NCBI GenBank assembly: GCA_963664705.1
Contig: OY761556.1
Location: forward strand, 5,824,001 to 5,888,000
Reading direction: 5' to 3'
DNA: 64,000 nt
Source: Acidobacteriota bacterium
GTDB taxonomy: Bacteria; Acidobacteriota; UBA6911
Each line of letters starts with the position of its first letter. The stretch's first letter is position 1. The translations under genes were made by a program, and so were the position numbers. Below, one piece after another: positions 2,665 to 41,168 of this stretch. A model generated the notes under the pieces. The model did not search any database. It was not told the origin of the DNA and saw nothing but the letters and a program-made list of their open reading frames with translations.

Positions 2665-3528
2665 ATGAAGTGCCTATTGAATGTGATCGCATTGTTGTTT
2701 CTCGTTAGCTCTAATCTTCCTGCGGCTCCGGCCTGCGACCGTGAATGCCTCAAAGGTTTTGTAACAAATTACCTGGATGCCATGGTTGCCCATAAGCCGG
2801 AGTCGGTTCCTGCTGCTTCCAACCTAAAATATACAGAGGACTGCAAGGAGCTGAAACTGGGCGAAGGGGAATGGAAAATAATCACCGGCCTCACCGAATA
2901 TCGCAGAGATGTTCTGGATGTAAAAGAGGGCGTTGCGGTTTCATTCAATATCGTTAAAGAGGGAGCCGATACAAAGGCGCTCTACACCATACGCCTCAAG
3001 GTTATCGATAAGAAGATAACCGAACTTGAAACGCAGGCGGTCCATAATCAGAAGGAAGCGATGCTTTTAGATTTCGAAAATATTAAGACCATCAGCAAGA
3101 CGATGGCCTTCGTTCCGGAAAAAAGGCAGCTTCTTTCAAGGGAAGACCTCATCAAGGCCGGCAGGACATATGCCGAAGGATTGAAGGTCGGCAGCTTTGT
3201 CAAAGTGGACTCGCCCATGGCGCCTGATGCGTACCGCTTTGAAAACGGCAAGCTCATGGCCGGTCCGGGATGCACCTTTTTCAAGGGTTGCGACACCATG
3301 AAAACGCAAACCATTCCAAGGCTGTCCGGGATCACACAGCGTGTCATGGCAGTGGATGAGGAAATGGGGGTTATCGCCATCCGCATGAATTTCGGGCCTG
3401 GATCCACCTTCCAGGGGGGCGGCGAGCTGGATGTCTTTCATTCATTTAAGGTTTATGACGGCTTGATCCGCGCCGCAGAAGCCTTTTTCAAACAGGTTCC
3501 GGCAGGCACCAAATCAGGCTGGGAATAA
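2665..3528 (+). CDS. Secreted uncharacterised protein, paralogue 2 of 5
   Basis: Signal peptide, CDRECL..YLDAMVAHKP, LGEGEW, RFENG, SGWE end; GGGAG RBS. Confidence 0.8.
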   Translation: MKCLLNVIALLFLVSSNLPAAPACDRECLKGFVTNYLDAMVAHKPESVPAASNLKYTEDCKELKLGEGEWKIITGLTEYRRDVLDVKEGVAVSFNIVKEGADTKALYTIRLKVIDKKITELETQAVHNQKEAMLLDFENIKTISKTMAFVPEKRQLLSREDLIKAGRTYAEGLKVGSFVKVDSPMAPDAYRFENGKLMAGPGCTFFKGCDTMKTQTIPRLSGITQRVMAVDEEMGVIAIRMNFGPGSTFQGGGELDVFHSFKVYDGLIRAAEAFFKQVPAGTKSGWE

Positions 3529-3584: not shown

Positions 3585-5486
3585 GTGCTGAAGACCAAGT
3601 CGTTCCTGACCTTTGCGCTCTTGATAATGGTGAGCTTTTCATTCATCCCCGTCACCTTCGCGCTAAATTACTCCAACAGACTGGGGAACAAGGCCACTTT
3701 CGAGATGCTGGAAGATGCTCGTGTGAGCAGCCCCGCAGCCGCCGCTTCTCAGGCATCGGGCAAGGGGAACTTCAAGTCTCATCCTGTACTTGATGGCTAT
3801 CCCAAAGGAACCACGTATGTGTATCGGTCGGCGAACCTGTGGAGCGGGCGCGCCAACCGCTCCAATACGAATATCATGGTCTTTGCCGAGAAGTCCTTTC
3901 AGGGCAAAGATGCTGCGTTTGCCTACCTGAAAGATCTCGGCCTTATCAACATCATCGATACGGCGATCGGCAGCGTGGTGCTCGTGACGCCCTCCGATCC
4001 CAAAGCCGGTTTCGGCGCCGCCGATCAGAAGCACTATTATTCCCTCCAGACCGCAATGCTTTCGCTGGGAGGCTCTGAAAGATCCAACAATGTCACCACG
4101 ACCTACTCTGACGGCGACTACTTCGGCGGCTTCGGCTTCCTTTATGTCGTCGGCATCGACGGTGGCGCGACTTTCTTCAATAATTACATTGCCAGCACCT
4201 TCGACTACGCCAGCCGTATTGCCGGCGTTCTGCTGATCAACGGCAAGATGGATGAGGTTCGAAATGTGGCCAGTGTCCTGCCCGTCTACCTGGTGAACGC
4301 CACCGAGGCTGTTGCGGCCAAGTACAAGGCCTCGAATAAAACCGACGCCGTCAAGGGCGACGCCAAAACTACTACCTACTTTAGTCAGAATCTTCCGCTT
4401 CAGCAGGTGATTGTAAACAGAGAATCAAGTCCGAACGTGGCCGTCCTCATCAAGAGGGTTTATGATGAGATGTTCTCCAGAACAATGAGAATCCCTGTCG
4501 TCAAACAAGGTTTGCACAGCGCCGGCACGCCTTACCAGGGATATAACTTCGATCAGGCGCCCTATTCCCTGGCCGCGCGGAATGTAGTCGCGAATGGTGT
4601 GGCGCCCGATGGCATTTCCGTGTTCCCGCACCAGGAAGACCGGTTCTCCAGCCTCAAGACTAAAGCGGGTGAGTACCTGCAGACTTGGTGCGAATATGTA
4701 CCCGCCGAAGTTCTCCAAAATAGGGTCGCGCCCGGCACCATCCCACTGATCATCGCTCTCCATGGCGGCGGGGATGACCCACAGGCTTTTGTTGAGGAAG
4801 TCGGCTGGCTGGAGATGGCACGCCAGAATCGATTTATCATCGTCGCCCCGGAACACCAGGGTCTCTATTCAGATCAGGCCGTTCTTGGAGAATCGATCGC
4901 TGCACTGGCCTCTTACATGATGAAGACCTATCCCGCGATTGACTCTTCCCGTATATATGCGTCCGGCTATTCGATGGGCGGAGGGGCGACCCTCACAATT
5001 GCGACCAGCCATCCCCGGATGCTGGCAGCCGTTGTAGACATGGCCGGTGCGATGTTCACTTTCACAGACCAGATGGAGGCGCAGTTCAAAGAAGCGGACC
5101 TGCCATTCATGTACTTAACCAGCGCCTATGACCTGCAGCCCAATATAAACCCGGATGACGGAAGTCTTTCAAATAATTCCCAGGTGCTTCTGAATAAATT
5201 TATGCTTTTCAATAACATGAACCAGATCAGCTATGACTTCAGAGCGCACCCGAAGTGCGGGTTTCAGGCGGATGCCTGGTCTGAGACTTTGTTGAATGAT
5301 GAACACAAAAATTACATATGGTATCTGAATAACAGGCAGGGCGTTCCCATGGTGGCCCTCAACTATACGGCAGATCTGATTCATGCTTTGTATCCACAGT
5401 ACGCCAGGATGGCGTGGGACTACCTGATCCGGTTCTCGCGCGATCAGAAGACCGGCGCAATCAAATACAATCCTTACGCCAGATAG
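3585..5486 (+). CDS. Secreted alpha/beta-hydrolase (PHB depolymerase/LpqC-like esterase) with N-terminal extra domain
   Basis: AGGAGG RBS and GTG start; signal peptide; PLIIALHGGG, nucleophile elbow GYSMGG, C-terminal LIHA His. Confidence 0.75.
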   Translation: MLKTKSFLTFALLIMVSFSFIPVTFALNYSNRLGNKATFEMLEDARVSSPAAAASQASGKGNFKSHPVLDGYPKGTTYVYRSANLWSGRANRSNTNIMVFAEKSFQGKDAAFAYLKDLGLINIIDTAIGSVVLVTPSDPKAGFGAADQKHYYSLQTAMLSLGGSERSNNVTTTYSDGDYFGGFGFLYVVGIDGGATFFNNYIASTFDYASRIAGVLLINGKMDEVRNVASVLPVYLVNATEAVAAKYKASNKTDAVKGDAKTTTYFSQNLPLQQVIVNRESSPNVAVLIKRVYDEMFSRTMRIPVVKQGLHSAGTPYQGYNFDQAPYSLAARNVVANGVAPDGISVFPHQEDRFSSLKTKAGEYLQTWCEYVPAEVLQNRVAPGTIPLIIALHGGGDDPQAFVEEVGWLEMARQNRFIIVAPEHQGLYSDQAVLGESIAALASYMMKTYPAIDSSRIYASGYSMGGGATLTIATSHPRMLAAVVDMAGAMFTFTDQMEAQFKEADLPFMYLTSAYDLQPNINPDDGSLSNNSQVLLNKFMLFNNMNQISYDFRAHPKCGFQADAWSETLLNDEHKNYIWYLNNRQGVPMVALNYTADLIHALYPQYARMAWDYLIRFSRDQKTGAIKYNPYAR

Positions 5487-5646
5487 GTGCGGCAGCACTG
5501 CGCCCGGCGAGGCGTTGCCGGAGCGCGAAAAGTCCTTCCCCGGTGGGTCGGGGCCATAGACCATAGTTATTGAGTAAGAGGGACCGCCCAGCGGCTTGGC
5601 GCTGCTGCTATTGGGGCATACACATTTCCCTGAAAGAAGGGGTCCG

Positions 5647-6918
5647 ATGGTTACAGCAATAACAATTCACGAAGCTGCGCAGGAAACGAAGGTCCTGGCG
5701 GAAACAGATGTTGTCGTTGTAGGAGCCGGGCCGGCCGGTGTTACTGCGGCTATTGCGGCGGCACGCGAAGGTGCCGACACAATTCTGGTGGAAAGGTATG
5801 GCTTTCTGGGCGGCATGGCTACGGGTGGTTTGGTTCTGATGATAAATCAGTACCCTTCAGGCCAATGCCAGGAATGGTTGGACCGGTTGAATAAAGTTGG
5901 CGGCGTGCATGATCTCTCCAAGACCAAAGAGCCTGGTGTTTTGAAACATACTATGATGCTCGATCCTGAACTCCTGAAGTGCATTTTGAACGATATGGTC
6001 CTCGAGGCCGGCGTAAAGCAGCTTCTTCATTCCTGGAGTGCGGCCGCAATTGTGGAAAAGAACGCTGTCAAAGGAGTCATTTTTGAAAGTAAATCCGGGC
6101 GTCAGGCAATCGTCGGCAAAGCGGTCATTGACGCCACCGGCGATGGAGACGTCTTCGCCTCCGCCGGCGCCGAATTTGATGCTGCACTCGACAAAGGCTA
6201 CCGCTCCTCAGATCTTGCCATGGTTTTCCGCATAGGGGGCGTGGATTTTGATGCGTTCGCCGATTTCCGCGCGGCACAGCCCGGGAAATGGGAAGAAATC
6301 AGAAATGAAGCGTTCAAGCTGTCCGGATTTCCTTTAGTACCCGTAGCTGCCCAGCGCAAAGATGTATTCTGGGTCAATAGCTTTATACCCGGCAAGAGCA
6401 GTATTAAGGTTGAGGATCTTACCTGGGTCAACGTTAATGTGCGCAAGGCAATGCTGCCGGTTCACTCCTATTACAAAAAGAATTTGCCCGGCTTTGAAAA
6501 CAGCTACCTTTACGATAGTGCATCGCAAACTGGAACGCGCGGCAGCCGCCGTCTTATCGGCGAATATATCTTGACCGGCGAGGATGCGCGTTCCGGAAAG
6601 AAGTTTGAGGACACGGTGTTGATGTTTCCGCAGGGCGTTCCGCTCAGCTGGCCCGGAGGCGTCCAGCCGCAAAACGTAGGAATGCCTTACCGTTGTCTTG
6701 TGCCAACCAAGCTGGATGGGCTTCTCGCTTCCGGACGCTGTTTTTCATCCGACCAGGCTGCCAACACAATGTTTAATGTCATTCCACACTGTATCCAGAT
6801 GGGTCAGGCCGCGGGGACCGCTGCTGCGCTGGCTGTCCAAAACGGAGTATTGCTGCGGAACATTGATGTCAAGGCACTTCAGAGAAGGCTTATCGCGCAA
6901 GGCGTTGAATTGCCCTAG
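5647..6918 (+). CDS. FAD-dependent oxidoreductase (FAD_oxidored family)
   Basis: DVVVVGAGPAG, ERYGFLGGMATGG, IDATGDGD, PYRCLVP..LLASGRCFS, MGQAAGTAAA. Confidence 0.85.
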   Translation: MVTAITIHEAAQETKVLAETDVVVVGAGPAGVTAAIAAAREGADTILVERYGFLGGMATGGLVLMINQYPSGQCQEWLDRLNKVGGVHDLSKTKEPGVLKHTMMLDPELLKCILNDMVLEAGVKQLLHSWSAAAIVEKNAVKGVIFESKSGRQAIVGKAVIDATGDGDVFASAGAEFDAALDKGYRSSDLAMVFRIGGVDFDAFADFRAAQPGKWEEIRNEAFKLSGFPLVPVAAQRKDVFWVNSFIPGKSSIKVEDLTWVNVNVRKAMLPVHSYYKKNLPGFENSYLYDSASQTGTRGSRRLIGEYILTGEDARSGKKFEDTVLMFPQGVPLSWPGGVQPQNVGMPYRCLVPTKLDGLLASGRCFSSDQAANTMFNVIPHCIQMGQAAGTAAALAVQNGVLLRNIDVKALQRRLIAQGVELP

Positions 6919-6963
6919 AAAACGGGACGAATTTTAGAAAGCAAAAACGAGAATAAACCGGAA

Positions 6964-7752
6964 TTACAGCGCTTTGCTCCCGCCGAGAATTCTCTCGATC
7001 GCATCGCGGCAGAGCGTAAGCACTCGTGCCAATTCAGGTTCTTTTTTCGTAAACCTGACTGTTGGGGTCGGAATGGTGATTGCGGCAATCTCCCCGTCAA
7101 AGCCGATGATCGCAGTTCCGATCGCCGAAATTCCAATCGAATGCTCCTCGCGATCGAATGCAAGCCCGGTTTCCCTAATTGTGAGGAGTTCCTCTTCAAG
7201 TTTTTTCCAGGAGCGGATGGAGTTTTCGGTGAAAGCGGTCAAATGCATGCGCTTTTTAACGCGGCTCAATGCCGCATCATCAAGCGCAGCCAACATCGCT
7301 TTGCCATTTGCCGTGCAGTGCAACGGGAATGAAACTCCGATAGCGGAGACGGCTCGAAGGCGATGGGATCCGGGTATCTGATCCACGAACACCGCCTTAT
7401 CCGCATCCATGACTGCGAGGTCAACGGTCTCACCTGTTTTCTCGGAAAGCTCCCGAAGGTAGGGGGCGGCGGTTTCGGCGAGCGGGAAACGTATGGAATG
7501 GGCAATCCTGACCAAGGCCGGACCGAGTCGCAGTCGGCCGCCGGGAGACGCTGAAACTACGAAATTCTCGGAATCAAGAGCCGAAATAATTCGCTGCACA
7601 GTTGATTTGGGCAAACCGACTTTTCCGGCAAGCTGGCCGAGACTCATACCGTTGCTTCCCTCGAGCGCCCGCAAGATCTCGGCCGCGCGAGCTATGACTT
7701 GGACTCCGTTTCGGTCCCTGGCCTTGGCTTTTGTTTTCAAGCGCTCAACCAT
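6964..7752 (-). CDS. IclR family transcriptional regulator
   Basis: VQVIARAAEIL..GLPKSTVQRI HTH; LHCTANGKAML; AFDREEH. Confidence 0.92.
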   Translation of the reverse strand: MVERLKTKAKARDRNGVQVIARAAEILRALEGSNGMSLGQLAGKVGLPKSTVQRIISALDSENFVVSASPGGRLRLGPALVRIAHSIRFPLAETAAPYLRELSEKTGETVDLAVMDADKAVFVDQIPGSHRLRAVSAIGVSFPLHCTANGKAMLAALDDAALSRVKKRMHLTAFTENSIRSWKKLEEELLTIRETGLAFDREEHSIGISAIGTAIIGFDGEIAAITIPTPTVRFTKKEPELARVLTLCRDAIERILGGSKAL

Positions 7753-8662
7753 CCAGCGGTTCTCCCTTTTGCAATGCTTTCCTCAGGTACTGCGTCAGCC
7801 GATCCCGGACACCTTGTGCTGATTCCGGCGTCCACTCATAAAATCCCTTGCATGATTTCATCCCAAGGCGCTGCTCCCCAATGTAATGCGCCAACAACGG
7901 GCTGGGCTCGGGTGACGCTTCAAGATGCCGAAGGATTACATTGTGAATCGCGAGAGTCAAGTCCAGTCCCACAAGGTCAGCGTTCTCCAGCGGACCCAAT
8001 ATCGGCAGCCGAATGCCGAAGCTGTTTTTGACGACCAGATCTACTGTTTCGGCATCGCAAATACCAGCCGCTACAATTGAAATTGCTTCTCTCCACAAAG
8101 CGTGCTGTAAACGATTGCCGACAAAGCCCGGCACATCGCGTTTGACATGGACCGCCAGTTTTCCCACCCGCTTTAGCAGGTGGATGCACTTCTCGATATA
8201 AACTGGATCAGTTTGAGGCGCTTGGATGACCTCAACCAATGGGATCAAATAGGGAGGATTCCACCAGTGCGTGCCGAGGATGCGCCGCCCGGCGTCCTCG
8301 GCCTTGGCGGCGATCTCCCCAATTGGAATGACCGACGTATTGCTGGCCAGGATACAGCCGGGCTTTGTAACCTTCGATATGTCCGCGAAAATGCCCTGCT
8401 TCAATTCAAGATTCTCGGGCGCAGCCTCGAACACGATATCGGCGTTTTCAACCGCAGCTTTGAGGGCTCGGTGCAGGGTTATTCTCTCAACACTCGATGG
8501 ATCAAAGCCAAGGCTCTGCAGGTTTGCACTCACCCGCTCGGGAACTCGTGCCAGCACTTCCGGGAAAGGATCGTGGATCGCGACATCGTGCCCCATTACT
8601 GCAAAAACCTGCGCTATGCCGTGTCCCATCAACCCGGCGCCGATCACTGCAATTTTTTCCAT
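7745..8662 (-). CDS. 3-hydroxyacyl-CoA dehydrogenase family; candidate 3-hydroxy-5-oxohexanoate dehydrogenase
   Basis: GAGLMGHG, EAAPENLELK, LASNTS, GTHWWNPP, PGFVGNRLQ. The specific function is inferred from context. Confidence 0.85.
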   Translation of the reverse strand: MEKIAVIGAGLMGHGIAQVFAVMGHDVAIHDPFPEVLARVPERVSANLQSLGFDPSSVERITLHRALKAAVENADIVFEAAPENLELKQGIFADISKVTKPGCILASNTSVIPIGEIAAKAEDAGRRILGTHWWNPPYLIPLVEVIQAPQTDPVYIEKCIHLLKRVGKLAVHVKRDVPGFVGNRLQHALWREAISIVAAGICDAETVDLVVKNSFGIRLPILGPLENADLVGLDLTLAIHNVILRHLEASPEPSPLLAHYIGEQRLGMKSCKGFYEWTPESAQGVRDRLTQYLRKALQKGEPLDG

Positions 8663-8680
8663 TTTCAAGCGCCTCCTGTC

Positions 8681-9481
8681 CTATACCACTCCATATTTAT
8701 AAATTCTGGGCGGAACGGGATTGATATCCTTCTCATCAATCAACGCTGCCATCCGGACAATGGATCCATCTCCCATATACCATCGCAATGGAAGTCCCAT
8801 AATCGTAACGCGCTTCCCGACGACCATCGCGATATCGCCGCCTACGTTTTCCCAACCCATGATCCCATTTCTAAGGAGAAGATTGTGACAGGGCTCCCAT
8901 TCGGGGAAATCCGCCAGCACGTCGCGTCCTGTCATCTGCTTATATTCATCACTGAGCGACGGCATGATAGGGCCGGGCCCATGGGGACCAATTGCGGTGT
9001 GCAGAGGGTGATCCAAAGCCTGCTGGTCCACGCCTACCGCTTTTACTCCTTTGGCGACAAACCACTCGCCTGCTTCGCGTCCGAGACCGGGCGAGTAGCA
9101 GAAGTACTCCTTATTGTCTCCCCAATATTTATTCCAGCCCGTGTGGACGATCACGATATCGCCCTTTTCGATCTTAGGCGTTGCCTTTTCCAGGTCGGCG
9201 GCTGTGATCAATTCCCATCTTTTCTTTGGGATGTCCACGACAACGCCCGTCCCATAGTAAAGATCCAGCGGTAATTCATGCGTATACGGGAGTCCTTCGA
9301 CTACATGTCCCGGCGAGTCGGCATGGGTTGAGCAATGCATCACGGTTGTGATCTTCTGTGAAAGGACGCCCGATTTGGCGTGGTAATGCATGCGCTCAAC
9401 TTTGATGTCTTCGAAGTATGGCCAGAGGGGAACGCCGGGGCCAAAGGGGTGACTGAGGTCCACTAATTTCTGATTGCTCAT
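8681..9481 (-). CDS. Cyclase family metal hydrolase; candidate dihydrophloroglucinol cyclohydrolase
   Basis: VDLSHP, HCSTHADSPGH metal motif, VGVD, HNLLL..G..GWEN. Start MSNQK has a GGAG RBS. Confidence 0.85.
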   Translation of the reverse strand: MSNQKLVDLSHPFGPGVPLWPYFEDIKVERMHYHAKSGVLSQKITTVMHCSTHADSPGHVVEGLPYTHELPLDLYYGTGVVVDIPKKRWELITAADLEKATPKIEKGDIVIVHTGWNKYWGDNKEYFCYSPGLGREAGEWFVAKGVKAVGVDQQALDHPLHTAIGPHGPGPIMPSLSDEYKQMTGRDVLADFPEWEPCHNLLLRNGIMGWENVGGDIAMVVGKRVTIMGLPLRWYMGDGSIVRMAALIDEKDINPVPPRIYKYGVV

Positions 9482-9509
9482 TTCAATGTCTCCAATTTGG
9501 GTTGAGTTT

Positions 9510-10301
9510 TTATCCGGCGACTGTACCGCCGTCCACATAAAGGACTTGCCCGGTTACGAAATCGGATGCAGGCGACGCAAGATAAACGGCTGCACCCACA
9601 GAATCCTGAGTTAGGGCGGCCCTGCCCATGGGAATCCTGGACATGAAAACTTTATACAGTTGCTCGTTCTCCAATACCTCCTGTGTGAGAGGCGTCCAGA
9701 AGATGCAGGGAGCAATCGAATTCACATTGATGTTGTACTTTGCCCATTCGGTGGCCAGCTGTTTTGTGAGGAGATTCACTGCGCCTTTGCTTGTTCCATA
9801 AGCGGCATATCCTCCTGGATGCCCGGCAAATGCGCGCACAGAAGAGATTGTGATGATTTTACCCCTTTTCTTTTCTTTGAAAATTTTTGCAGCATGCTTG
9901 CAGCAAAGAAATGTTCCCCGGACATTGATATCCATGACCTGTTGCCAGTCATCAATGGGAAATTCCTCGGCGGGGAAACGCTTCGCGATTCCTGCCGCCG
10001 TGACCAGGATGTCAACAGTTCCGAACACCTTCAGAGTTTCCTGCACCATGGCCTCGACGTCTTTTTCAACGGCAACGTCGCAGCTCAGCGCCAGGGCTTT
10101 TCGGCCGGCCGCCTCAATGTCCTTTACAACGGGTTCCAGTGTCTTCAACGTGCGTCCGGTTATCACAACATTGGCGCCATATAGGGCTAGGCTTTGTGCA
10201 ATCGCTTGTCCCAGGGCGCCCGCACCTCCTGTCAGGATTGCCACCTTGCCTTCGAGACTAAACATGTTTCGGACATAATTCAAATCAACGCGAGATTCCA
10301 T
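9510..10301 (-). CDS. SDR oxidoreductase; candidate phloroglucinol reductase
   Basis: TGGAGALG, catalytic YGTSK, N-terminal 'YVRNMFSLEGKVA'; lies next to cyclase and BKACE genes. Confidence 0.85.
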   Translation of the reverse strand: MESRVDLNYVRNMFSLEGKVAILTGGAGALGQAIAQSLALYGANVVITGRTLKTLEPVVKDIEAAGRKALALSCDVAVEKDVEAMVQETLKVFGTVDILVTAAGIAKRFPAEEFPIDDWQQVMDINVRGTFLCCKHAAKIFKEKKRGKIITISSVRAFAGHPGGYAAYGTSKGAVNLLTKQLATEWAKYNINVNSIAPCIFWTPLTQEVLENEQLYKVFMSRIPMGRAALTQDSVGAAVYLASPASDFVTGQVLYVDGGTVAG

Positions 10302-10333
10302 TGATCCACCGCCTTTCGACGTACTAATCCAGA

Positions 10334-10672
10334 TTATTTATAGGTGATGATCACAAGCATGCTTGCCGGCTTATTCGTGTTGTTGATGATCGCCCTGGCT
10401 TCGTTGGGCCCAACATACAGAGAGTCTGATGCCCTCAGCACGTATGTTTGTTTGTCCGGTGAGGTGACGGTGACCTCTCCCTCGAGCACAAAATAAAGCT
10501 TTTCCGCCGGTGTGGCGTCCATCTCGGCACCCCCATTCGGCAGAAAATGAGAGAGACCCATCCAGAACTGCTGCGTTCCTGTTTCCTCTTTTCCATGCAG
10601 TCTCAACGCGGTCATGTTGAAATGCTTGGGCGGGGCATAGGGTTTTGCATCCTGCAATTCTACCTTTTTCAT
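10334..10672 (-). CDS. Cupin domain protein
   Basis: MKKVELQDAKPY start with AGGAGG RBS; LSHFLPNGG, EKLYFVLEGE, GPNEAR. Confidence 0.85.
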   Translation of the reverse strand: MKKVELQDAKPYAPPKHFNMTALRLHGKEETGTQQFWMGLSHFLPNGGAEMDATPAEKLYFVLEGEVTVTSPDKQTYVLRASDSLYVGPNEARAIINNTNKPASMLVIITYK

Positions 10673-10699
10673 TCCGGCCTCCTTTATTGTTGCTGAGTG

Positions 10700-10735
10700 T
10701 ATCACGATGTGGTATGACAATACCATAATGCGGTA
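10700..10735. promoter_or_regulatory. Paired 15-bp pseudo-palindromes, putative IclR operators
   Basis: TATCACGATGTGGTA (10700-10714) and TACCATAATGCGGTA (10721-10735) start 21 bp apart in the 91-bp divergent intergenic region. Confidence 0.6.
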
Positions 10736-10763
10736 AAACCCAGTACCCTCAAAAGGAGACCAT

Positions 10764-11147
10764 ATGGTGAAATGGGCAAGAGTTCTGCTGTTTGTCTCTG
10801 TTGCGCTTTTTAGTCTGACTCCGGCCTTTGCCGCCGATGTTTCAGGTAAATGGACTACTGCGATACAGACTGGAATCGGGGTCATGAACTATACCTTCGA
10901 ATTTAAGGCCGATGGGGAGAAGCTCACAGGAAAGGCCGTGATGTCCATGGAAGGCGGGTCCAGTGAATCCGCCATAACGGAAGGATTCGTGAAGGGTGAT
11001 CAAATATCCTTTGTCGAAGCGCTGAAGGTTCAAGGCCAGGAACTCAGGAGTGAATACAAGGGCAAAATATCGGGTGATGAGATCCGCTGTTCCCGGCAGG
11101 TGGGCAGCTATGGAACGGAAGAGTTCGTAATAAAGCGCGCCAAATAG
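10764..11147 (+). CDS. Small secreted beta-rich (lipocalin-like) protein
   Basis: AAGGAG RBS, signal peptide ending AFA, ADVSGKW..FKADGEKLTG..GDQISF..YKGKISGDEI. Confidence 0.8.
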   Translation: MVKWARVLLFVSVALFSLTPAFAADVSGKWTTAIQTGIGVMNYTFEFKADGEKLTGKAVMSMEGGSSESAITEGFVKGDQISFVEALKVQGQELRSEYKGKISGDEIRCSRQVGSYGTEEFVIKRAK

Positions 11148-11220
11148 TTTTGCGGCCGCGAAGTCTGTCCTGGAAGAGGTCTTGGCAAACAAGCAGATTG
11201 CTTCAATGAGAGGAGCCGTT

Positions 11221-12156
11221 ATGGCCGACAAGCTGATCATCACAACAGCACTGACGGGCGCAATCACTATCCCAACCCAGACGCCTCACCTGCCCTTTAC
11301 GCCGGAGCACCTCATTGCAGACGCGATCGCATGTGGTCAAGCGGGCACTGCCGCAGTTCACGTGCATGCGCGCGATCCTGTAAACGGACGACCGCTTTCC
11401 GATCCCGACCTCTTTGGGCCGATCCTGAAAGGAATCAAAGCAGGCAGCAATGTTGTGGTAGGGACCACAACCGGAGGAGGTATGGGCATGTCACCTCAGG
11501 ACAGGCTGCGTGTGATTCCACGCTATCGTCCTGAGTTGGCATCGTTCAATCTGGGAAGCATCAATTTTTCTATTCATCCCGTGGCCAGGCGATACAAGGC
11601 CGAGGACTACAAATACGATTGGGAACAGTCGTATGCGGAAGGCACGAAGGATTTTATTTTTCGCAACACCTTCGGCGACATGGAGACCTACGCCAGTACG
11701 TTCGCGGAAAATAATGTGCGGCCCGAATTCGAGGCCTATGATGTGGGACACCTGTACAATTTGCGGTTCATGATGAAGAGCGGCATTGTGAAGCCTCCTT
11801 TTTGGATTCAGTTCGTTTTGGGAGTCCTGGGCGGTCTGGCCGCTACGATTGAAGATTTGATCGTGATGAAGCAAACGGCTGACCGGCTGTTCGGAGGCGA
11901 TAATTATCGATGGTCGGTCATCGGTGTTGGCTATCCCGCCGAGATCAATCTGGCGGCTATGGCAATTATGATGGGAGGACATGTGCGGGTAGGCCTCGAA
12001 GATAATATTTACATCGGCAAAGGCAAGCTCTGCACGAATGTCCAGCTTGTGGAAAAAATCGTGCGCCTGGCGCGAGAGTTTGACCGGGAAATCGCTACCC
12101 CTGATGACATGCGACAAATTCTGGGACTCAAGGGTACTGGAGCGGTTGGCTTTTAA
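11221..12156 (+). CDS. Beta-keto acid cleavage enzyme (BKACE/DUF849); candidate triacetate acetoacetate-lyase
   Basis: IITTALTGA, HVHARDP, TTGG, PEFEAYD, HVRVGLEDN. Confidence 0.9.
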   Translation: MADKLIITTALTGAITIPTQTPHLPFTPEHLIADAIACGQAGTAAVHVHARDPVNGRPLSDPDLFGPILKGIKAGSNVVVGTTTGGGMGMSPQDRLRVIPRYRPELASFNLGSINFSIHPVARRYKAEDYKYDWEQSYAEGTKDFIFRNTFGDMETYASTFAENNVRPEFEAYDVGHLYNLRFMMKSGIVKPPFWIQFVLGVLGGLAATIEDLIVMKQTADRLFGGDNYRWSVIGVGYPAEINLAAMAIMMGGHVRVGLEDNIYIGKGKLCTNVQLVEKIVRLAREFDREIATPDDMRQILGLKGTGAVGF

Positions 12157-12170
12157 AGAGGTACGACGGG

Positions 12171-12836
12171 ATGAGCAAATTCATAACTTGTACTGAAGCG
12201 GTTGAGATGATCCCCGATGGCGCCTCTCTCCTGATCGGAGGATTTATGGGGGTCGGATCGCCACACCGCGTAATCGCCGAAATGGTTCGCCAAGGACGGA
12301 AAGGGCTCACCATTATCGCCAACGATACCGGCACGCCGAATTTCGGGATTGGCCAATTGGTGCAAGCCCGGAGTATCCGCAAATTGATCGCATCTCATAT
12401 CGGGCTAAATCCCGAAACACAGAGGCAGGTAATCGCAGGAGAAATAGAAGCGGAGCTATGCCCGCAAGGTACGCTTGCGGAAAGGATTCGTGCTGGAGGC
12501 TTTGGGCTCGGCGGCGTTCTTACTCAGACAGGAATCGGAACCACCGTTGCCGAAGGGAAACCTGTTATTGACGTAGACGGGAAACAATATTTGCTCGAGA
12601 GACCTTTAACCGCTGATTTTGCACTGATCGCAGCGCATCGATCGGATTACCGAGGCAACCTGGAATATTCTATGACCGCGCGCAATTTCAACATGGTCAT
12701 GGCGACGGCCGGCCGGGTTGTCATTGCTGAACCTGAACACATCGTCCCGACCGGCGGCATACCTCCGGATGCGGTGGCGACTCCCTTCGTTTGCATTCAC
12801 CACATTATCGGGAGGGTTGGAACCAATGGACGATAA
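12171..12836 (+). CDS. atoD: Acetoacetate CoA-transferase subunit A
   Basis: IGGFMGVG, IASHIGLNPE, PQGTLAERIRAGG, ARNFN. Confidence 0.88.
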   Translation: MSKFITCTEAVEMIPDGASLLIGGFMGVGSPHRVIAEMVRQGRKGLTIIANDTGTPNFGIGQLVQARSIRKLIASHIGLNPETQRQVIAGEIEAELCPQGTLAERIRAGGFGLGGVLTQTGIGTTVAEGKPVIDVDGKQYLLERPLTADFALIAAHRSDYRGNLEYSMTARNFNMVMATAGRVVIAEPEHIVPTGGIPPDAVATPFVCIHHIIGRVGTNGR

Positions 12837-13476
12837 GGTCCTGATTGCGAAGCGTGTCGCTCGCGAATTAAGGGACGGGAGCCTCGTTAATCTTGGTATC
12901 GGCTTGCCAACACTGGTTCCCAGGTATTTGCCGCCCGGGATCGAAGTCTATTTCCAATCCGAAAACGGGATAATCGGCATGGCGCCCGTGCCTGGTGTCG
13001 GAATGGAAGAACCCTCGCTTACTGATGCCGGTGGCGGTTTTGTCGGTGCCATTCCCGGAGCCGCAAGCATCGACAGTTGCCTCTCGTTCGGACTGATCCG
13101 AGGCGGCCACCTCGATTTAACTATTCTCGGTGGGCTTGAAGTGGATGAACAGGGACGGTTGGCGAACTGGACCGTGCCGGGCAAGATGTTGCCGGGAATG
13201 GGCGGCGCCATGGATCTTGTGACCGGAGCCAAGCGGGTTATTGTCGCAATGTCCCACACTGCAAGAGGCAAACCAAAAATATTGAAGAATTGCACGCTGC
13301 CTTTGACGTCGGTGCGGCGAGTCAGCCTGATCGTGACGGAAATGGCCGTGATCGAACCAACAGAGGACGGCTTGCTTCTTAAAGAGATAGCCCCGGGATT
13401 GAGCGTGGCTAAGGTCGTTGAATCGACAGAAGCGAATCTGATTGTTTCGAAACCTGTTCTCGAAATGGCGTTATAA
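12826..13476 (+). CDS. atoA: Acetoacetate CoA-transferase subunit B
   Basis: VNLGIGLPT, catalytic QSENG, PGMGGAMDLV. Start MDDK overlaps the end of subunit A. Confidence 0.88.
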   Translation: MDDKVLIAKRVARELRDGSLVNLGIGLPTLVPRYLPPGIEVYFQSENGIIGMAPVPGVGMEEPSLTDAGGGFVGAIPGAASIDSCLSFGLIRGGHLDLTILGGLEVDEQGRLANWTVPGKMLPGMGGAMDLVTGAKRVIVAMSHTARGKPKILKNCTLPLTSVRRVSLIVTEMAVIEPTEDGLLLKEIAPGLSVAKVVESTEANLIVSKPVLEMAL

Positions 13477-13926
13477 CTCCCAACCCGTCCCGCAGATTCG
13501 CAATTCCAGGGATGATGCATTGAGTGCCAATACCATTGAGGTGTGCAAGCATCCGGGAACACGCAAAAATGTGATGCATTGGTACCACCGCTGCCAACGG
13601 GATGAACCTCAGCCGCTGGCATTTCCATGGCGTTAAACTGACGATTCAAGGAAGCTATTTAGAACCAATCCGTATATGGTGCGTTGCTAACTTGCATAGA
13701 ATACTTTCGTAGCTCTACAAGCCAACAGTATCGAATAGATAAAATGAAGCAAGCCGGGCCGGCATGCCATTTCATTTCTTGCTCCGCTGGCATCAAATAT
13801 CATAGATTTCCTGTCACGCTGTTTTGGGCAGTGATAGCAAATGTATATAGTCAATATAGGCAGCGTTCCGCGTTGCGGATTCCTGGTGCCGATACTGTAT
13901 GCAATTCCATAAGGTGAGGACCGGAT

Positions 13927-15597
13927 ATGGCGCGTAAAAGAGGTAATGCGAATGTGAAGGGTTTGTGCTCTTTGATTGCCGTCATTTTGTTGTATTTGTC
14001 TTCCTCGCTGCCCGCAGCTCCTCCCCAAAATAGGGGGGATGTATACTCTGTACTTGATCCACGGGGCATCTGGCCAAAAATCGAACGAATTCCATTGAGT
14101 CCCAGGCTGCCATCACTGAAAGGGAAGCGGATCTATATCATTAATTCCTGGGGCAGCGGCACAGGGTTTGAGACTATTTTTTCAAAAATCTCCGAGGTAA
14201 TACGAGAGCGCCAGCCCGATGCAACCGTAACAATCAAAGGACGCAATACCGGATATTCCTTAGATGACCCGGAGCTTTGGAAGGAAATGAAGACCAAAGC
14301 AGATGCCTTCATCTACGCTGGTGCCCCATCTTCATCCACCACTTCCTATGCGTTCCAGTGGTCGGCCGCGCTGGAAAAAATGGGTTTGCCGGGTGTCGTG
14401 TTGATGTATGACACCTTATTAAGTGTTGCAGACACCACTCGCAAGCGGCAGGGTGCTGAATTGCGCTATGTTGCGGTCCCTTTCCCTGCAGACACGATGA
14501 GCCCATCCCGGGAAAGCAAGGCTATCGATAGTATTTTGCAATGCCTTACTCTTCCGCTGGAGGCTCAAGAACAAAAAACCGGTTTTATCGAAGCACCGGA
14601 AAGACCGCGAATCATGACCAAAGGCAGCTTCGATGAAATTCAACAATATTTCCACACGCAGGGCTTGAGTGACGGCCTGCCGATTATTCCCCCTACGGAA
14701 GCACGAGTGGCGGCCATGCTGCGTGGTACGAGTCAGAAACCGGACACCGTGGTTATCAAAGCCCTAACGCCGGAAGGTCTGGGTGTCACAGTGGAGAAAG
14801 TTGCCATCAATGGCGTCATGGCAGGCTGTAAGCCCCGCCACATGCCGGTGCTTCTGGCTATGCTGGAGGCCTACGATCTGCACAATCGAACCAACTCTCT
14901 TGTGCGGTCCACGAATGCGTTCTCTTTTATGCAGGTTGTAAATGGGCCGATCCGCAAAGAGCTGGATATGAATGCCGGGACGTCTGTGCTGGGTCCGGGG
15001 AATTATGCCAACGCTGCCATGGGCCGTGCACTGCATTTATTTATCACCAATCTGGGTGGAGGAGTGTCCGGCATTAATATGATGTCGGTTGTAGGCAACA
15101 TCAGCACCTGGCCGTTCATGTTTGCCGAGTTTGAAGAGCAAAGCCCCTGGCAATCTTTAAGCGTCTCACAGGGATTTAAGAAAGAGGAAAACACTCTCAC
15201 AATGTTTACCGGTGGCTGGGCACACGCCGGTAACTACGGGCATGTGCGATTTACGCTGCAACATGTGGCTGAAGACATTGCTGAGTTTGAGCTTCCAAGT
15301 GGTGCCGCCATTATCATATCGCCAAAGCGTGCTGAGATATTAAAGGCTCAAGGGTATACCAAGCAGGGAATAGCCGATTACCTGGTTGAACACGCCACAA
15401 AGCCGCTTGGCAAACTGCGGTCCTCCCATTATTTTTCTGATACCGCGGATAGCGCTGGCAAGCCGGACAGCCTTGAATATCGTGTGTTCAAACCCGGCAC
15501 CGTTCATGTCATCGTGGCGGGAGGCGACGCCAGCCCCATGATGCAGGCCTGGCACATGTACAGGCCCATAACCGTTTCCATTGATAAATGGAAGTAA
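13927..15597 (+). CDS. Exported fusion of a UGSC-like domain and its usual partner domain (function unknown)
   Basis: Hydrophobic leader; LSPRLPSLKGKRI..ALEKMGLP; GLSDGLPIIPPTEARVAAML, VEKVAINGVMAGC, ANAAMGRAL. Confidence 0.65.
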   Translation: MARKRGNANVKGLCSLIAVILLYLSSSLPAAPPQNRGDVYSVLDPRGIWPKIERIPLSPRLPSLKGKRIYIINSWGSGTGFETIFSKISEVIRERQPDATVTIKGRNTGYSLDDPELWKEMKTKADAFIYAGAPSSSTTSYAFQWSAALEKMGLPGVVLMYDTLLSVADTTRKRQGAELRYVAVPFPADTMSPSRESKAIDSILQCLTLPLEAQEQKTGFIEAPERPRIMTKGSFDEIQQYFHTQGLSDGLPIIPPTEARVAAMLRGTSQKPDTVVIKALTPEGLGVTVEKVAINGVMAGCKPRHMPVLLAMLEAYDLHNRTNSLVRSTNAFSFMQVVNGPIRKELDMNAGTSVLGPGNYANAAMGRALHLFITNLGGGVSGINMMSVVGNISTWPFMFAEFEEQSPWQSLSVSQGFKKEENTLTMFTGGWAHAGNYGHVRFTLQHVAEDIAEFELPSGAAIIISPKRAEILKAQGYTKQGIADYLVEHATKPLGKLRSSHYFSDTADSAGKPDSLEYRVFKPGTVHVIVAGGDASPMMQAWHMYRPITVSIDKWK

Positions 15598-20441: not shown

Positions 20442-22154
20442 ATGAGAAAGCAAGGGCTTACAATTTTCCTGCTTGTTATCGGTGTTTTAGGCATATCGGG
20501 ATGCAATCACCCAAAGGTTGTCCCTGCCGATATGGTGCTGATCCACGCAAAGATCTATACGGTGAATCCCAAAATGCCTTGGGCCCAGGCTATGGCGGTT
20601 CGTGAAGGGAAAATCATTGCTGTGGACTCTGACAATGCGATAAGCGCGTATCAAGGTCCTTCGACAAAGGTTATCGATGCGAAAGAGCACCTGGTGCTGC
20701 CTGGGTTCATGGATGCTCATGTCCACATCGGGGCGGGCGCTGCCATGCTTGAGCAAATCGCTTTGAATGATGCCAAGACAATCGATGATTTCCAAAAGAT
20801 GATCAAGGACTACGCCACTGCGCACCCGGATAGGAAATGGATCCAGGGCATGGGGTGGTACTACAGCGTTTTCGGCAAAAACGGCGTGCCTGACAAGAAG
20901 TTCATTGACGAAGTCGTCTCCGACCGTCCCGTTTGTCTGGCGGCGTACGACGGCCATAGTTCCCTTGCCAACAGTAAGGCTCTTCAAATTGCAGGAATCA
21001 CCCGGAAGACGCCCGATCCACCCAATGGAATTATCGTGCGCAATCCGGCAACAGGCGAACCCACCGGCTTTTTGAAAGAAGCCGCCGGCTCACTTGTCAG
21101 GAAAAATATTCCGCAGCCGACCCGCGACGAAGAACGGAAGCGGCTGACGAATGCTATCCACTATGCCAGTTCCCTGGGGCTTACCCGATTGATCAGCGCC
21201 GGTGCGGATGCGGAGCGCATTGATTTATTTGACGAGATCCGGCAAAAGGGCGACCTGACTACCCGCCTTTACATGGCACGGTTTGTCACTCCTCCGATAT
21301 CTCCGGATGTTGTTAAAGTTCTGGAGGAAAATCGAAAAAAGTATTCCGATGACTGGCTTGATCTGGCTCCTGTGAAATTCCTGCTTGACGGAGTCATAGA
21401 AGCGCATACGGCGGCTATGCTGGAACCGTATACCAACGATTCCGCCAATAGCGGACAACTCTATTTTGATCCTGGTAAATATAAGGAGGCTGTCATGCAA
21501 CTGGACCGCCTCGGATTTCAGATATTCACCCATGCCATTGGTGATCGGGCCATTCGCCTTGCGCTGGATGCGTATGAGGCTGCCAATAAGGCCAACGGCC
21601 GCACCGATGCCAGGGACAAGATCGAGCACATCGAAGATCCCAGTGCCGAGGACATTCCTCGATTCGGAAAGCTTGGCGTAATCGCCAGCATGCAGCCGTT
21701 GCATACAACTCCGAACGACAACAATTTAAATGTCTGGGCAGGGAACGTAGGTCCCGAGCGCGCTCAACGGGCATGGCCCTGGAGGGACATCCTGTCCGGC
21801 GGCGCGGTGTTGAGCTTCGGCAGTGACTGGTCGGTGGTAACGCTGAATCCCTGGCCGGCCGTACAGATGCTGATGACACGCGAGACCCCGGAGGGAACTC
21901 CGGCGGGAGGATGGATTCCTAAGGAACGTCTCACGCTGGAGGAGGCAATTCGAGGGTACACGATGGGAGTCGCCTTCGCCGCGAGGAGAGAAAAAACAGA
22001 GGGCTCTATCGAAGCCGGAAAGCTTGCGGACGTGATCGTCATATCCCAGGACCTGTTCAAAATTGCGCCGAATCAGATCGGAAAGACGAAGGTACTGATG
22101 ACAATGGTTGGAGGGAAGGCTGTTTATCAGGATTCCTCATGGGAAGGCAAATAA
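20442..22154 (+). CDS. Amidohydrolase 3 (YtcJ-like) lipoprotein
   Basis: Lipobox ISGC; PGFMDAHVH, HAIGDRA, IEHIE, FGSDW, GSIEAGKLAD. Confidence 0.88.
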   Translation: MRKQGLTIFLLVIGVLGISGCNHPKVVPADMVLIHAKIYTVNPKMPWAQAMAVREGKIIAVDSDNAISAYQGPSTKVIDAKEHLVLPGFMDAHVHIGAGAAMLEQIALNDAKTIDDFQKMIKDYATAHPDRKWIQGMGWYYSVFGKNGVPDKKFIDEVVSDRPVCLAAYDGHSSLANSKALQIAGITRKTPDPPNGIIVRNPATGEPTGFLKEAAGSLVRKNIPQPTRDEERKRLTNAIHYASSLGLTRLISAGADAERIDLFDEIRQKGDLTTRLYMARFVTPPISPDVVKVLEENRKKYSDDWLDLAPVKFLLDGVIEAHTAAMLEPYTNDSANSGQLYFDPGKYKEAVMQLDRLGFQIFTHAIGDRAIRLALDAYEAANKANGRTDARDKIEHIEDPSAEDIPRFGKLGVIASMQPLHTTPNDNNLNVWAGNVGPERAQRAWPWRDILSGGAVLSFGSDWSVVTLNPWPAVQMLMTRETPEGTPAGGWIPKERLTLEEAIRGYTMGVAFAARREKTEGSIEAGKLADVIVISQDLFKIAPNQIGKTKVLMTMVGGKAVYQDSSWEGK

Positions 22155-22209
22155 CTGTTTACGCTTCTCGCAAGCGGGAGTCAGGAAACTCCGGGATAAA
22201 GATACTCAA

Positions 22210-23748
22210 ATGAAGCAACTTCGCACTGGGATGGTAGTGGCATGGCTCGCTTTGCTCGCGGCACAATCTTCGGCGCAGATCAGTTCTGTAGAAGGGCCGG
22301 TGCCAACGGGTCCGGGCAGCAGCATTTTTATAGCAGCCGATGTGCCGGGCGCAAGGTTGTCGATTCCTCTGACGCCTTACGGCTATGTTGAAGTGGAATA
22401 TTTTATCAAAGGTACGGCTGCAGCCTACACGCATTCTCCTTCGGGACCGAATGTGTTGCGCGCCAAATTTCCTTACTCGACACGGATCATCGTGCGGAGG
22501 CCTGTCGATCCGAAGCGGTTCAGCGGTGTTGTTCATTTTGAGCCGATCCATCCAACCCAGGGGTATGTGGGGCACTGGCTGGTGCTGGATCGGTACCTGA
22601 TGTCGCGTGGCGATATCTACGTTGCCGCTGGATTGGGAGACGCCGACAAGGGATGGTCGGGGAGCCCCCATTCCTCCGGGGAAACAGCTCCGGTGGGATC
22701 GCACTCGCTGACCAAATGGTTCGATCCCCGGCGCTACAGTGCGCTCCAATGGCCCGAAGAAGAAGGCATCCGCTACGAAGTCATGGCCGATATCGGGCGG
22801 AAGTTGCGCAGCAATGATAAAGACAATCCTCTGCGAGGCCTGTCGGTCAAGGCGATGCTGGTGGGCGGATGGTCCTATACCGGAAGTATCCAGCGCGTAT
22901 TCATCAACGAAGGCTTCCATGATCGCGCACGATTGACCAATGGTCAACCGGTGTTCGATGGTTACCTTATCGGTGTTTCGTCGCAGTGGAATGACCCCGG
23001 CTATTTGCCTCTCTATAATGATGAACCTTTCGTGCCAGTTGGCGACGCGCGGAGGAATCTCAGGAAAACCGATGCGCGCGTCATCGAGTTCCTGACTGAA
23101 TCTGAAGTGGACTTGGGTACCGGGCCGCAGGCTCCGGATAGTGATGAGCGGCTTGGCGGTCATCGCCTTTATGAGCTTGGCGGTGTAATTCACGTGGCGA
23201 ACCTTGCGGATCCCGCCTTGCCTGAGCGCGAAGAACCCGCTGTGACACAACTCCTCCAGCGAGGTTATCCGGCGAAGCAGGTGCCGGACGAGCCGGTCTT
23301 TTCTTGTGCCATCGCGCAGAGCGACATTCCGGAAGGGGCGTTCGTGAGGGCAGCTGTCGATAATCTTCGCCGCTGGGTATTGGGTGGTGAGGCCCCGCCC
23401 AGAGCTGAGACACTCGCGCTAAACGGAAAGAAATTGGCGCGTGATGAAGTGGGCAATCCCAAGGGAGGTATTCGAGCTGCGGAATTTAATGTCCCGCTTG
23501 CGCGTTATGGGCGCTATCAGGGGAGTGACAAGCCGAGTTGCCGTGAAGACCGGCCTTATCCTTTTGTATTCCTGCTACGGAATGAGCTGTCTCGAGAAGA
23601 GCTTAATCGTCGTTATCAATCGCCGAGGCACTACCTCGATCTCTACAATAGTGATATCGATCGCCTCGTCAGACAGCGCTGGCTCCTGCCGGAGGATGGG
23701 CTGAGACTTAAGGCAAAGGCCGTAGAAGATGCTGCGCGGCAATTCTAA
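22210..23748 (+). CDS. Secreted alpha/beta hydrolase domain protein (ABhydrolase_10-like)
   Basis: GYVEVEYFIKGTA, RRPVDPKRFSG, GWSYTG, RDEVGNPKGGIR, WLLPED. Confidence 0.78.
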   Translation: MKQLRTGMVVAWLALLAAQSSAQISSVEGPVPTGPGSSIFIAADVPGARLSIPLTPYGYVEVEYFIKGTAAAYTHSPSGPNVLRAKFPYSTRIIVRRPVDPKRFSGVVHFEPIHPTQGYVGHWLVLDRYLMSRGDIYVAAGLGDADKGWSGSPHSSGETAPVGSHSLTKWFDPRRYSALQWPEEEGIRYEVMADIGRKLRSNDKDNPLRGLSVKAMLVGGWSYTGSIQRVFINEGFHDRARLTNGQPVFDGYLIGVSSQWNDPGYLPLYNDEPFVPVGDARRNLRKTDARVIEFLTESEVDLGTGPQAPDSDERLGGHRLYELGGVIHVANLADPALPEREEPAVTQLLQRGYPAKQVPDEPVFSCAIAQSDIPEGAFVRAAVDNLRRWVLGGEAPPRAETLALNGKKLARDEVGNPKGGIRAAEFNVPLARYGRYQGSDKPSCREDRPYPFVFLLRNELSREELNRRYQSPRHYLDLYNSDIDRLVRQRWLLPEDGLRLKAKAVEDAARQF

Positions 23749-41099: not shown

Positions 41100-41129
41100 A
41101 AGTAAACCTCTCGATGGATATGTGAGAAG

Positions 41130-41155
41130 GCGGTCCGGCGCAGCCGCCGGACCGC
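41130..41155. terminator. GC-rich hairpin between btuB and cobQ
   Basis: GCGGTCCGGCG-cagc-CGCCGGACCGC. The U-tail on the coding (minus) strand is weak, so it may be a partial terminator or mRNA stabiliser. Confidence 0.55.
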
Positions 41156-41168
41156 TTTTGTCCTCATA

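Follow-up and report, generated by a model that had tools for sequence, protein, structure and literature searches.

Phloroglucinol is the ring that remains from plant flavonoids and tannins. The anaerobic gene cluster for its degradation, encoding phloroglucinol reductase (PGR), dihydrophloroglucinol cyclohydrolase (DPGC), a 3-hydroxy-5-oxohexanoate dehydrogenase (TfD) and a triacetate lyase (TAL), has been characterised in Clostridium scatologenes (Zhou et al. 2023, PMC10470551). Rubrivivax gelatinosus is reported to degrade phloroglucinol as well (PMC10470551), and a study of peat microcosms describes 57 metagenome-assembled genomes of 13 phyla that expressed phloroglucinol genes (PMC12203004). 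Here we describe a cluster at positions 6964-13476 of a 64,000-nt stretch of DNA from an Acidobacteriota bacterium (UBA6911; assembly GCA_963664705.1, contig OY761556.1), hereafter the window, in whose positions coordinates are given. Judged from its sequence, the cluster likely runs an oxygen-independent phloroglucinol route to acetyl-CoA and acetate. The pathway itself is characterised and predicted in thousands of genomes, and to it the cluster, ordinary in kind and already predicted, adds little; it differs by a non-orthologous cleavage enzyme of the BKACE family and by one companion cupin.

The cluster comprises nine intact open reading frames (ORFs) in two divergent arms, five on the minus strand and four on the plus strand, with starts picked by ribosome-binding-like sequences:

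6964-7752, minus strand: IclR-family regulator (PF01614 and PF09339), the last gene of its operon
7745-8662, minus strand: 3HCDH-family protein (PF02737 and PF00725), likely (S)-3-hydroxy-5-oxohexanoate dehydrogenase (TfD)
8681-9481, minus strand: cyclase-family hydrolase (PF04199), likely DPGC of the short, 266-aa type
9510-10301, minus strand: short-chain dehydrogenase/reductase (SDR; PF13561), likely NADPH-dependent PGR of a Rubrivivax-type clade
10334-10672, minus strand: single-domain cupin of 112 aa (PF07883)
10700-10714 and 10721-10735, divergent gap: two tandem 15-bp imperfect palindromes, candidate IclR operator
10764-11147, plus strand: 127-aa protein with a signal-peptide-like N-terminus, no Pfam family
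11221-12156, plus strand: BKACE of the long G-A-I subfamily (PF05853)
12171-12836, plus strand: 3-oxoacid CoA-transferase subunit A, AtoD-like (PF01144; TIGR02429 above cut-off)
12826-13476, plus strand: 3-oxoacid CoA-transferase subunit B, AtoA-like (PF01144; TIGR02428 above cut-off)

The minus-strand operon is read in the order cupin, SDR, cyclase, 3HCDH and IclR, with intergenic gaps below 35 nt and an 8-nt overlap between the IclR start and the 3HCDH stop; the plus arm is read in the order 127-aa ORF, BKACE, CoA-transferase A and CoA-transferase B. All genes but that of the 127-aa protein score above their Pfam cut-offs, and a preliminary description of the window had placed and oriented all eight correctly but had overlooked the ninth ORF (10764-11147, plus strand) before the BKACE. 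The CoA-transferase has the marks of family I 3-oxoacid CoA-transferases, namely TIGR02429 and TIGR02428 above cut-off and an SENG motif at position 45 of subunit B; the NF007394 score of subunit A lies below cut-off. The cyclase, cupin and BKACE are each single-copy in the host genome (E<=1e-10), and the GC content of the cluster, 0.51-0.56 against 0.53 for the genome, gives no indication of recent transfer.

In the route that we propose, the SDR would reduce phloroglucinol with NADPH to dihydrophloroglucinol, which the metal-dependent cyclase would hydrolyse to (S)-3-hydroxy-5-oxohexanoate. The 3HCDH would oxidise this free acid to triacetate, probably with NAD+ (Asp31), and the BKACE, a BKACE15-like enzyme in place of TAL, would convert triacetate and acetyl-CoA to acetoacetate and acetoacetyl-CoA. 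AtoDA would activate the acetoacetate and a thiolase encoded elsewhere would finish the route, for a net yield of two acetyl-CoA and one acetate. The double palindrome would be the site at which the IclR regulator controls the two arms, and phloroglucinol would be taken up from the medium or supplied by a phloretin-hydrolase-type operon 29 kb off, not made from pyrogallol.

Homologues of PGR, DPGC, TfD and the BKACE family are co-located in the window as they are in the cluster of Zhou et al., and the two clusters share these four enzyme families, an acetoacetate CoA-transferase and the marker residues of DPGC and TfD. In our comparisons with C. scatologenes, which use the published identity tables plus a proxy cluster (L163, L165), clusters of the window's type are only ~38, 43 and 45-48% identical in PGR, DPGC and TfD, respectively. 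Furthermore, the window has two divergent arms, a cupin and an IclR regulator, has no in-cluster thiolase or MFS transporter, and carries a BKACE of another clade that has no Trp. R. gelatinosus (L066) shares with the window the SDR (63% identity, against 39% to the canonical PGR proxy), the cyclase (71%), the TfD (55%), the cupin (46%) and the order cupin-SDR-cyclase, but it has atoD-atoA-cupin-SDR-cyclase-BKACE on one strand and the TfD gene on another contig, and its TAL is of the Trp type and 34% identical to the window BKACE. Holophaga foetida, of the same phylum and with the same four families, has clostridial-type enzymes (PGR 84%, DPGC 70-73% and TAL 55-56% identical to C. scatologenes), unlike the window. 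The clostridial route that had been assigned to the window stands, with enzymes that are Rubrivivax-type and only ~38-48% identical to their clostridial counterparts. Nor is the pathway new in this kind of Acidobacteria, since Holophaga and two near-identical Acidobacteria contigs, JAFGTD010000031.1 (L007) and JAFGIY010000011.1 (L005), are already in Supplementary data 2 (PMC10470551). In SDR and cyclase both contigs share 85-95% identity with the window, and both carry a BKACE; the accessible rows of the table give them PGR (38%), DPGC (43%) and TfD (45-48%) identities to C. scatologenes and have no TAL row (PMC10470551).

The grouping of these genes is well above chance expectation. Our locus counts rest on the best 80 of 137 cyclase relatives from a genome scan, and many of these loci end at contig ends. 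Within 8 kb of the cyclase we found an SDR in 72 of the 80 loci, the cupin in 69, a 3HCDH in 51, a BKACE in 41, an IclR regulator in 22, and the CoA-transferase subunits in 13 each. With identity thresholds applied, all four enzymes are present in 33/80 loci, and 29 of those 33 have the cupin. The eight nearest loci are labelled Acidobacteria/Acidobacteriota and have cyclases 93-96% identical to that of the window. In the reverse test, a cupin alignment was searched against metagenomes and the best 80 of 574 loci were taken; at least one core gene accompanies the cupin in 69/80 loci and in 40/45 of those that span 6 kb or more, and the cyclase does so in 32/45 of the latter, counts that are biased upward because the query was built from cyclase-adjacent cupins.

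The SDR carries Ser154, Tyr168 and Lys172, Arg50 and a clade-specific Arg156. In an 87-row tree (64 rows from a chosen subset of loci, 20 genome paralogues, Escherichia coli KduD and IdnO, and the query), the SDR is placed in a clade of 56 rows (SH-aLRT 95) together with L163, our proxy for canonical PGR (401 bits to PDB 5G4L). A careful 26-row tree gives support of 98/97 to a 16-row group that unites the query clade and the canonical PGR clade, and forcing the SDR together with E. coli KduD/IdnO in that tree is rejected (p-AU 0.041). The window SDR belongs to a sister clade of the canonical PGR subclade, as represented by the proxy sequence, and does not lie inside that subclade. In addition, Arg156, two positions past the catalytic Ser, is present in 56/56 rows of the clade and in 1/31 of the others, and 5G4K has an Arg as well. 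Three Rubrivivax genomes contain no SDR nearer to canonical PGR than the cyclase-adjacent one (35-38%). By these trees, the SDR clusters with the phloroglucinol reductases and not with KduD/IdnO, and the affiliation with gluconate/KduD enzymes that the preliminary description had named as refuting the route was not found with the E. coli KduD and IdnO sequences.

The cyclase retains the substrate residues Trp20 and Tyr22, which were matched to DPGC by motif and numbering and are present in 91/92 and 88/92 aligned homologues, respectively. His49, His53 and Asp55 form the His-x3-His-x-Asp motif of the cyclase family, which we take to be the metal-ligand site. With 266 aa, the protein resembles R. 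gelatinosus I0HKD8 in length, whereas clostridial DPGC has 312 aa. These features make it a likely dihydrophloroglucinol cyclohydrolase. In the 3HCDH, Ser110, His132 and Asn183 of C. butyricum HBD are retained, while Lys56 falls in a gap and Asn221 is replaced by Arg218, so that both CoA-binding residues are lost. TfD is defined by this free-acid pattern, in which the catalytic Ser/His/Asn are kept and the CoA-binding Lys56/Asn221 are lost (PMC10470551), and the 3HCDH is likely a dehydrogenase of free 3-hydroxy acids. The four enzyme families, Trp20/Tyr22, the TfD pattern and the SDR tree all agree with the phloroglucinol route as first proposed. To call the cluster complete, as the preliminary description did, goes slightly too far: all steps up to acetoacetyl-CoA are present, but the cluster contains neither a thiolase nor a transporter gene.

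The BKACE has the catalytic set of a competent enzyme, including the Zn histidines His47 and His49, Glu171 and Arg256. At the position of Kce Glu14, where TAL carries Trp, it has Ile15 (TGAIT) and thus does not bear the TAL signature; it is 33-36% identical to Trp-type proteins and forms a separate clade in the tree. The best of four BKACE models is NF053538 (3,5-dioxohexanoate:acetyl-CoA acetone transferase; 392 bits), and the best structure matches are 3LOT, which ranks first, 3E02 and 8RIO, the last with 292 bits compared with 153 bits for Kce 2Y7D. 3LOT, listed as uncharacterised, is presumably a protein of Archaeoglobus fulgidus. A cyclase of A. fulgidus is in the published pathway list (PMC10470551). 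8RIO is BKACE15 of Paracoccus denitrificans, for which 3,5-dioxohexanoate (triacetate) is given as a confirmed in vitro substrate and the physiological role is described as unknown (PMC11961710); the accessible part of the NetSyn preprint does not mention phloroglucinol. The window enzyme shares with BKACE15 and NF053538 the G-A-I motif, the ~310-aa form, the Zn histidines, Glu171 and the counterpart of Arg254. It differs in that its 392 bits compare with a model cut-off of 430, and in that its gene context would supply a physiological role. Because the nearest subfamily includes BKACE15, with 3,5-dioxohexanoate as a substrate, the window BKACE, although outside the TAL clade, likely performs the same triacetate:acetyl-CoA cleavage. 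The preliminary description had named a BKACE of another substrate group as refuting the route. The enzyme found lies outside the C. scatologenes TAL clade, but its subfamily is the one whose model NF053538 is named for 3,5-dioxohexanoate and whose member BKACE15 cleaves this substrate, so that the route is not cleanly refuted on this point.

The 47 BKACEs found near these cyclases fall into the Trp clade (11, from Rubrivivax, Bacillota and the proxies), the window's clade (34) and a third clade (2), and within the window's clade Ile or Val is present in all 32 of the 34 rows where the pattern read the site. The commonest BKACE clade beside this cyclase type is that of the window, without the Trp, and annotation that relies on clostridial TAL will miss it. 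The nearest relatives of the window BKACE are proteins of Dehalococcoidia and Syntrophorhabdales, and the nearest SDRs belong to Trp-enzyme clusters. By these sequence relationships the cluster is a mosaic, with an SDR nearest to Trp-BKACE clusters and a BKACE nearest to another group.

Several observations weigh against the phloroglucinol route. In the PDB, the SDR best matches a gluconate 5-dehydrogenase (197 bits, versus 163 for PGR) that is absent from the trees, the p-AU of 0.041 is borderline and comes with a thin outgroup, and the NADPH motif TR(S/N) is matched in part (T48-G-R50-T51 in the window versus T-G-R-N in 5G4K/5G4L). The BKACE has neither the Trp of TAL nor a score above the NF053538 cut-off, and BKACE15-type enzymes accept several substrates (PMC11961710). 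Identity to characterised enzymes is modest (38%, 43% and 45-48%, as read from near-identical relatives), and our literature search found no assayed member of the clade with the short cyclase and the Rubrivivax-type SDR. Furthermore, no transporter or thiolase is among the nine cluster genes, and an acetate kinase was not found in the host genome (98% complete). Finally, the PhlG-type operon is independent of the cluster, because 26/29 same-genus genomes carry the operon and 9/29 the cyclase.

The cluster might instead act on a phloroglucinol that bears a methyl, acyl or carboxy group, or on some other cyclic 1,3-diketone; this would account for both the change of BKACE subfamily and the additional cupin. 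The broader specificity of that BKACE subfamily, the identity of just ~40% between the SDR and cyclase and the assayed enzymes, and the dihydroxybenzoate/hydroxyquinol genes that adjoin related clusters of R. wittichii RW1 would fit such a substrate. Still, we consider it unlikely, since Trp20/Tyr22 are kept in the cyclase, a 3-hydroxy-acid dehydrogenase and a BKACE would be needed only for the 3-hydroxyl of dihydrophloroglucinol, and in Rubrivivax and Bacillota this SDR/cyclase clade occurs together with Trp-type TAL.

The distribution of the cyclase is patchy and concentrated in the host's genus. Of 29 other genomes of the genus, 9 have it (92-96% identity), which makes 10/30 cyclase-bearing genomes with the host included; no cyclase above E 1e-33 was found in 7 further genomes of the family and 24 of the class, and 0/300 other sampled genomes of the phylum have one at E<=1e-50. 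Homologues of 33-35% identity in three other Acidobacteriota were dropped for their different gene context, and the cyclase tree, which has long branches, was not used to infer the direction of transfer. This patchiness (9/29 same-genus genomes, 0/300 in the rest of the phylum sample), together with the lack of a transporter gene in the cluster and a published proposal for PGR-only genomes, could mean that the genes mainly detoxify phloroglucinol or see rare use in a host that does not grow on it. This we hold to be very unlikely, as every step to acetoacetyl-CoA is present and intact and comes with a conserved candidate operator, and as the published case of detoxification lacked the cyclohydrolase. 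A sugar-acid pathway built on a gluconate 5-dehydrogenase/KduD-like SDR and a galactosidase-like cupin is scarcely credible, because the best matches that suggest it, to gluconate 5-dehydrogenase/KduD structures and NCBIfam models for the SDR (254.8<279 and 215.8<338.85) and to a beta-D-galactosidase model for the cupin (87.3<175), all have model scores below cut-off, the SDR trees and Arg156 speak against it, none of the nine genes encodes a sugar kinase, an aldolase or a sugar transporter, and the cupin, which lacks a signal peptide, accompanies ring-cleavage genes. With the phloroglucinol route retained, one genus of Acidobacteriota is marked as a likely opener of polyphenol-derived rings, with a cyclase type that is otherwise rare in the phylum sample.

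Three relatives of the cluster differ in layout. In the close relative L003 (3665-8481) no cupin was found and the ORF of the BKACE is short, through a deletion or an assembly fault. One Bacillota-like genome (G079; L161, L162 and L164) encodes five homologues of the cyclase. Four of these are divergent and adjoin molybdoenzyme pairs, of which one was verified as transhydroxylase-like, and several of the homologues have no Tyr22. On plasmid pSWIT02 of the aerobe R. wittichii RW1 (L187; Swit_5054-5059), IclR-cyclase-cupin-SDR-3HCDH-BKACE lie beside a hydroxyquinol dioxygenase and a 3-oxoacid CoA-transferase.

The cupin has three histidines, His17, His26 and His42, none of which lies in the cupin motif regions, so that it does not have a TM1459-like metal-binding site and a typical His-ligated dioxygenase is excluded. 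Tyr12, His17, Trp37, Tyr60, Arg93 and Asn97 are invariant across 75 cupin sequences and Lys58 is present in 74/75; of these, Lys58 and Arg93 lie inside the cupin motif regions. The structural model is a plain cupin barrel (pLDDT 83.7), a single-sequence fold having been discarded (pLDDT 38), and a fold search returned generic cupins only (13-28% identity). A PDB sequence search gave no match, and ESM Atlas returned unnamed cupin clusters. The sole named profile match is NF050094, a Mycobacterium beta-D-galactosidase model that we infer to be built on Rv1717 (87.3 bits, cut-off 175). Rv1717 is reported as a cell-wall beta-galactosidase in one study (PMC7873859), and Rv1714-Rv1716 are noted as ~40% identical to the Clostridium polyphenol cluster in another (PMC5894108). 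M. riyadhense holds SDR, cyclase, cupin, BKACE and IclR genes together, as the window does, but its cupin is 32% identical to that of the window and the mycobacterial BKACE belongs to the third clade.

The conserved residues of the cupin would suit acid-base catalysis or anion binding with an enolisable substrate, and the protein is most likely a metal-free accessory enzyme that acts on an enolisable intermediate. As our single best guess, and a tentative one, it may be a keto-enol tautomerase; the preliminary description had suggested a tautomerase too, and the residues are compatible with it. Such an activity would be useful to the pathway because it is a keto tautomer of phloroglucinol that PGR is believed to reduce; against a need for the cupin, the four pathway enzymes work in vitro without it (PMC10470551). 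Our literature search found no paper that combines phloroglucinol, cyclohydrolase and cupin, and none by title on a cupin or tautomerase in the phloroglucinol pathway, with subscription journals outside its coverage. It is conceivable, if doubtful as a whole, that the cupin is a fifth pathway enzyme, a tautomerase that provides the reductase with phloroglucinol in its keto form or re-equilibrates dihydrophloroglucinol or triacetate, that the mycobacterial galactosidase label reflects a side activity, and that triacetate cleavage has been recruited from three BKACE clades. If true, such recruitment would assign a physiological function to the BKACE15-like enzymes, so far an orphan subfamily. 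The cupin, conserved and metal-free, would be a missing part of the pathway that lends itself to testing; the one relative of it that has been assayed bears a label at odds with this role.

Both 15-bp palindromes (10700-10714 and 10721-10735) lie in the 91-bp gap between the divergent arms. Their core positions are kept in the window and seven close loci, and L001 has a perfect 36-bp palindrome; the palindromes were not seen in the more distant locus L009. The double palindrome is a candidate IclR operator, and the IclR protein is likely the local regulator of the cluster. Scans of 5400-14000 for sigma-70 promoters and for terminators gave 4 hits versus 6.5 and 7 versus 9.4 in shuffles, respectively, and thus did not exceed the shuffles, and an Rfam scan of window positions 1-26000 gave no match. 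The 127-aa protein downstream of the gap has five paralogues in the host genome, is present solely in the eight closest loci, and matches unnamed Acidobacteriota clusters in ESM Atlas; it is probably a passenger of the cluster from a family typical of Acidobacteriota.

A possible source of phloroglucinol lies 29 kb outside the cluster, in a block (G000:C1:5800675-5805125, L159) that contains a LysR regulator, a PF18089 gene of the PhlG/phloretin hydrolase type, a 73-aa ferredoxin and a 748-aa flavoprotein, AprA/FrdA-like with a C-terminal PhlG-like domain. The PF18089 hydrolase scores 96 against a PhlG cut-off of 600, and in the same-genus genome G019 the hydrolase block directly follows atoA. 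Flavoprotein relatives, some partial, are found near the cyclase in 18/80 loci, and the flavoprotein and hydrolase possibly form a chalcone-type reductase plus hydrolase. Elsewhere in the cyclase clade, the genes beside the cyclase that would produce phloroglucinol encode a transhydroxylase-like enzyme in 11/80 loci and a PhlG-type hydrolase in 7/80. Entry from pyrogallol was rejected, as no transhydroxylase was found in the host genome: the best match to the query, a verified homologue (836 bits to 4V4C), is 27%. The analogy with Holophaga that had been drawn for the window therefore holds for phylum and enzyme families and fails upstream, as well as in the clostridial type of the Holophaga enzymes. 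The host genome contains two UbiD-family genes, and thiolase candidates elsewhere in it are 48% and 40% identical to the thiolase of the proxy cluster.

In addition, the host genome encodes a full-length haem-copper oxidase subunit I (COX1) and has seven matches to the [FeFe]-hydrogenase family, which suggests a facultative or micro-aerobic anaerobe. The term anaerobic, as used in the preliminary description, fits the chemistry of the route but not necessarily this host, which has COX1 plus [FeFe]-hydrogenase genes.

A FAD-dependent oxidoreductase (5596-6918, PF12831) next to the IclR gene was rejected as a cluster member; it is convergent on IclR, has seven genome paralogues and is found in 6/80 loci. 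Two Chloroflexota loci (L019 and L022) have homologues of it, 70-73% identical, at a distance of 7 kb from the cyclase. Many exported esterase-like genes surround the cluster and could release aromatic acids from plant esters. Among them, 22108-23748 encodes an alpha/beta hydrolase and 23796-25445 a Tannase/feruloyl esterase family protein with 13 genome matches. A UGSC-family protein with a signal-like N-terminus (13927-15597) is part of a large expansion with 35 tblastn matches in the genome. Five exported-looking proteins have no Pfam family (1290-2300, 2665-3528, 25517-26524, 26576-27580 and 29600-30652), and four of them share a 'CDR.CL'-like or similar N-terminal cysteine-pair motif and look paralogous. 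At 39549-43118, a CobQ-like amidotransferase adjoins a TonB-dependent receptor, which suggests corrinoid uptake and salvage.

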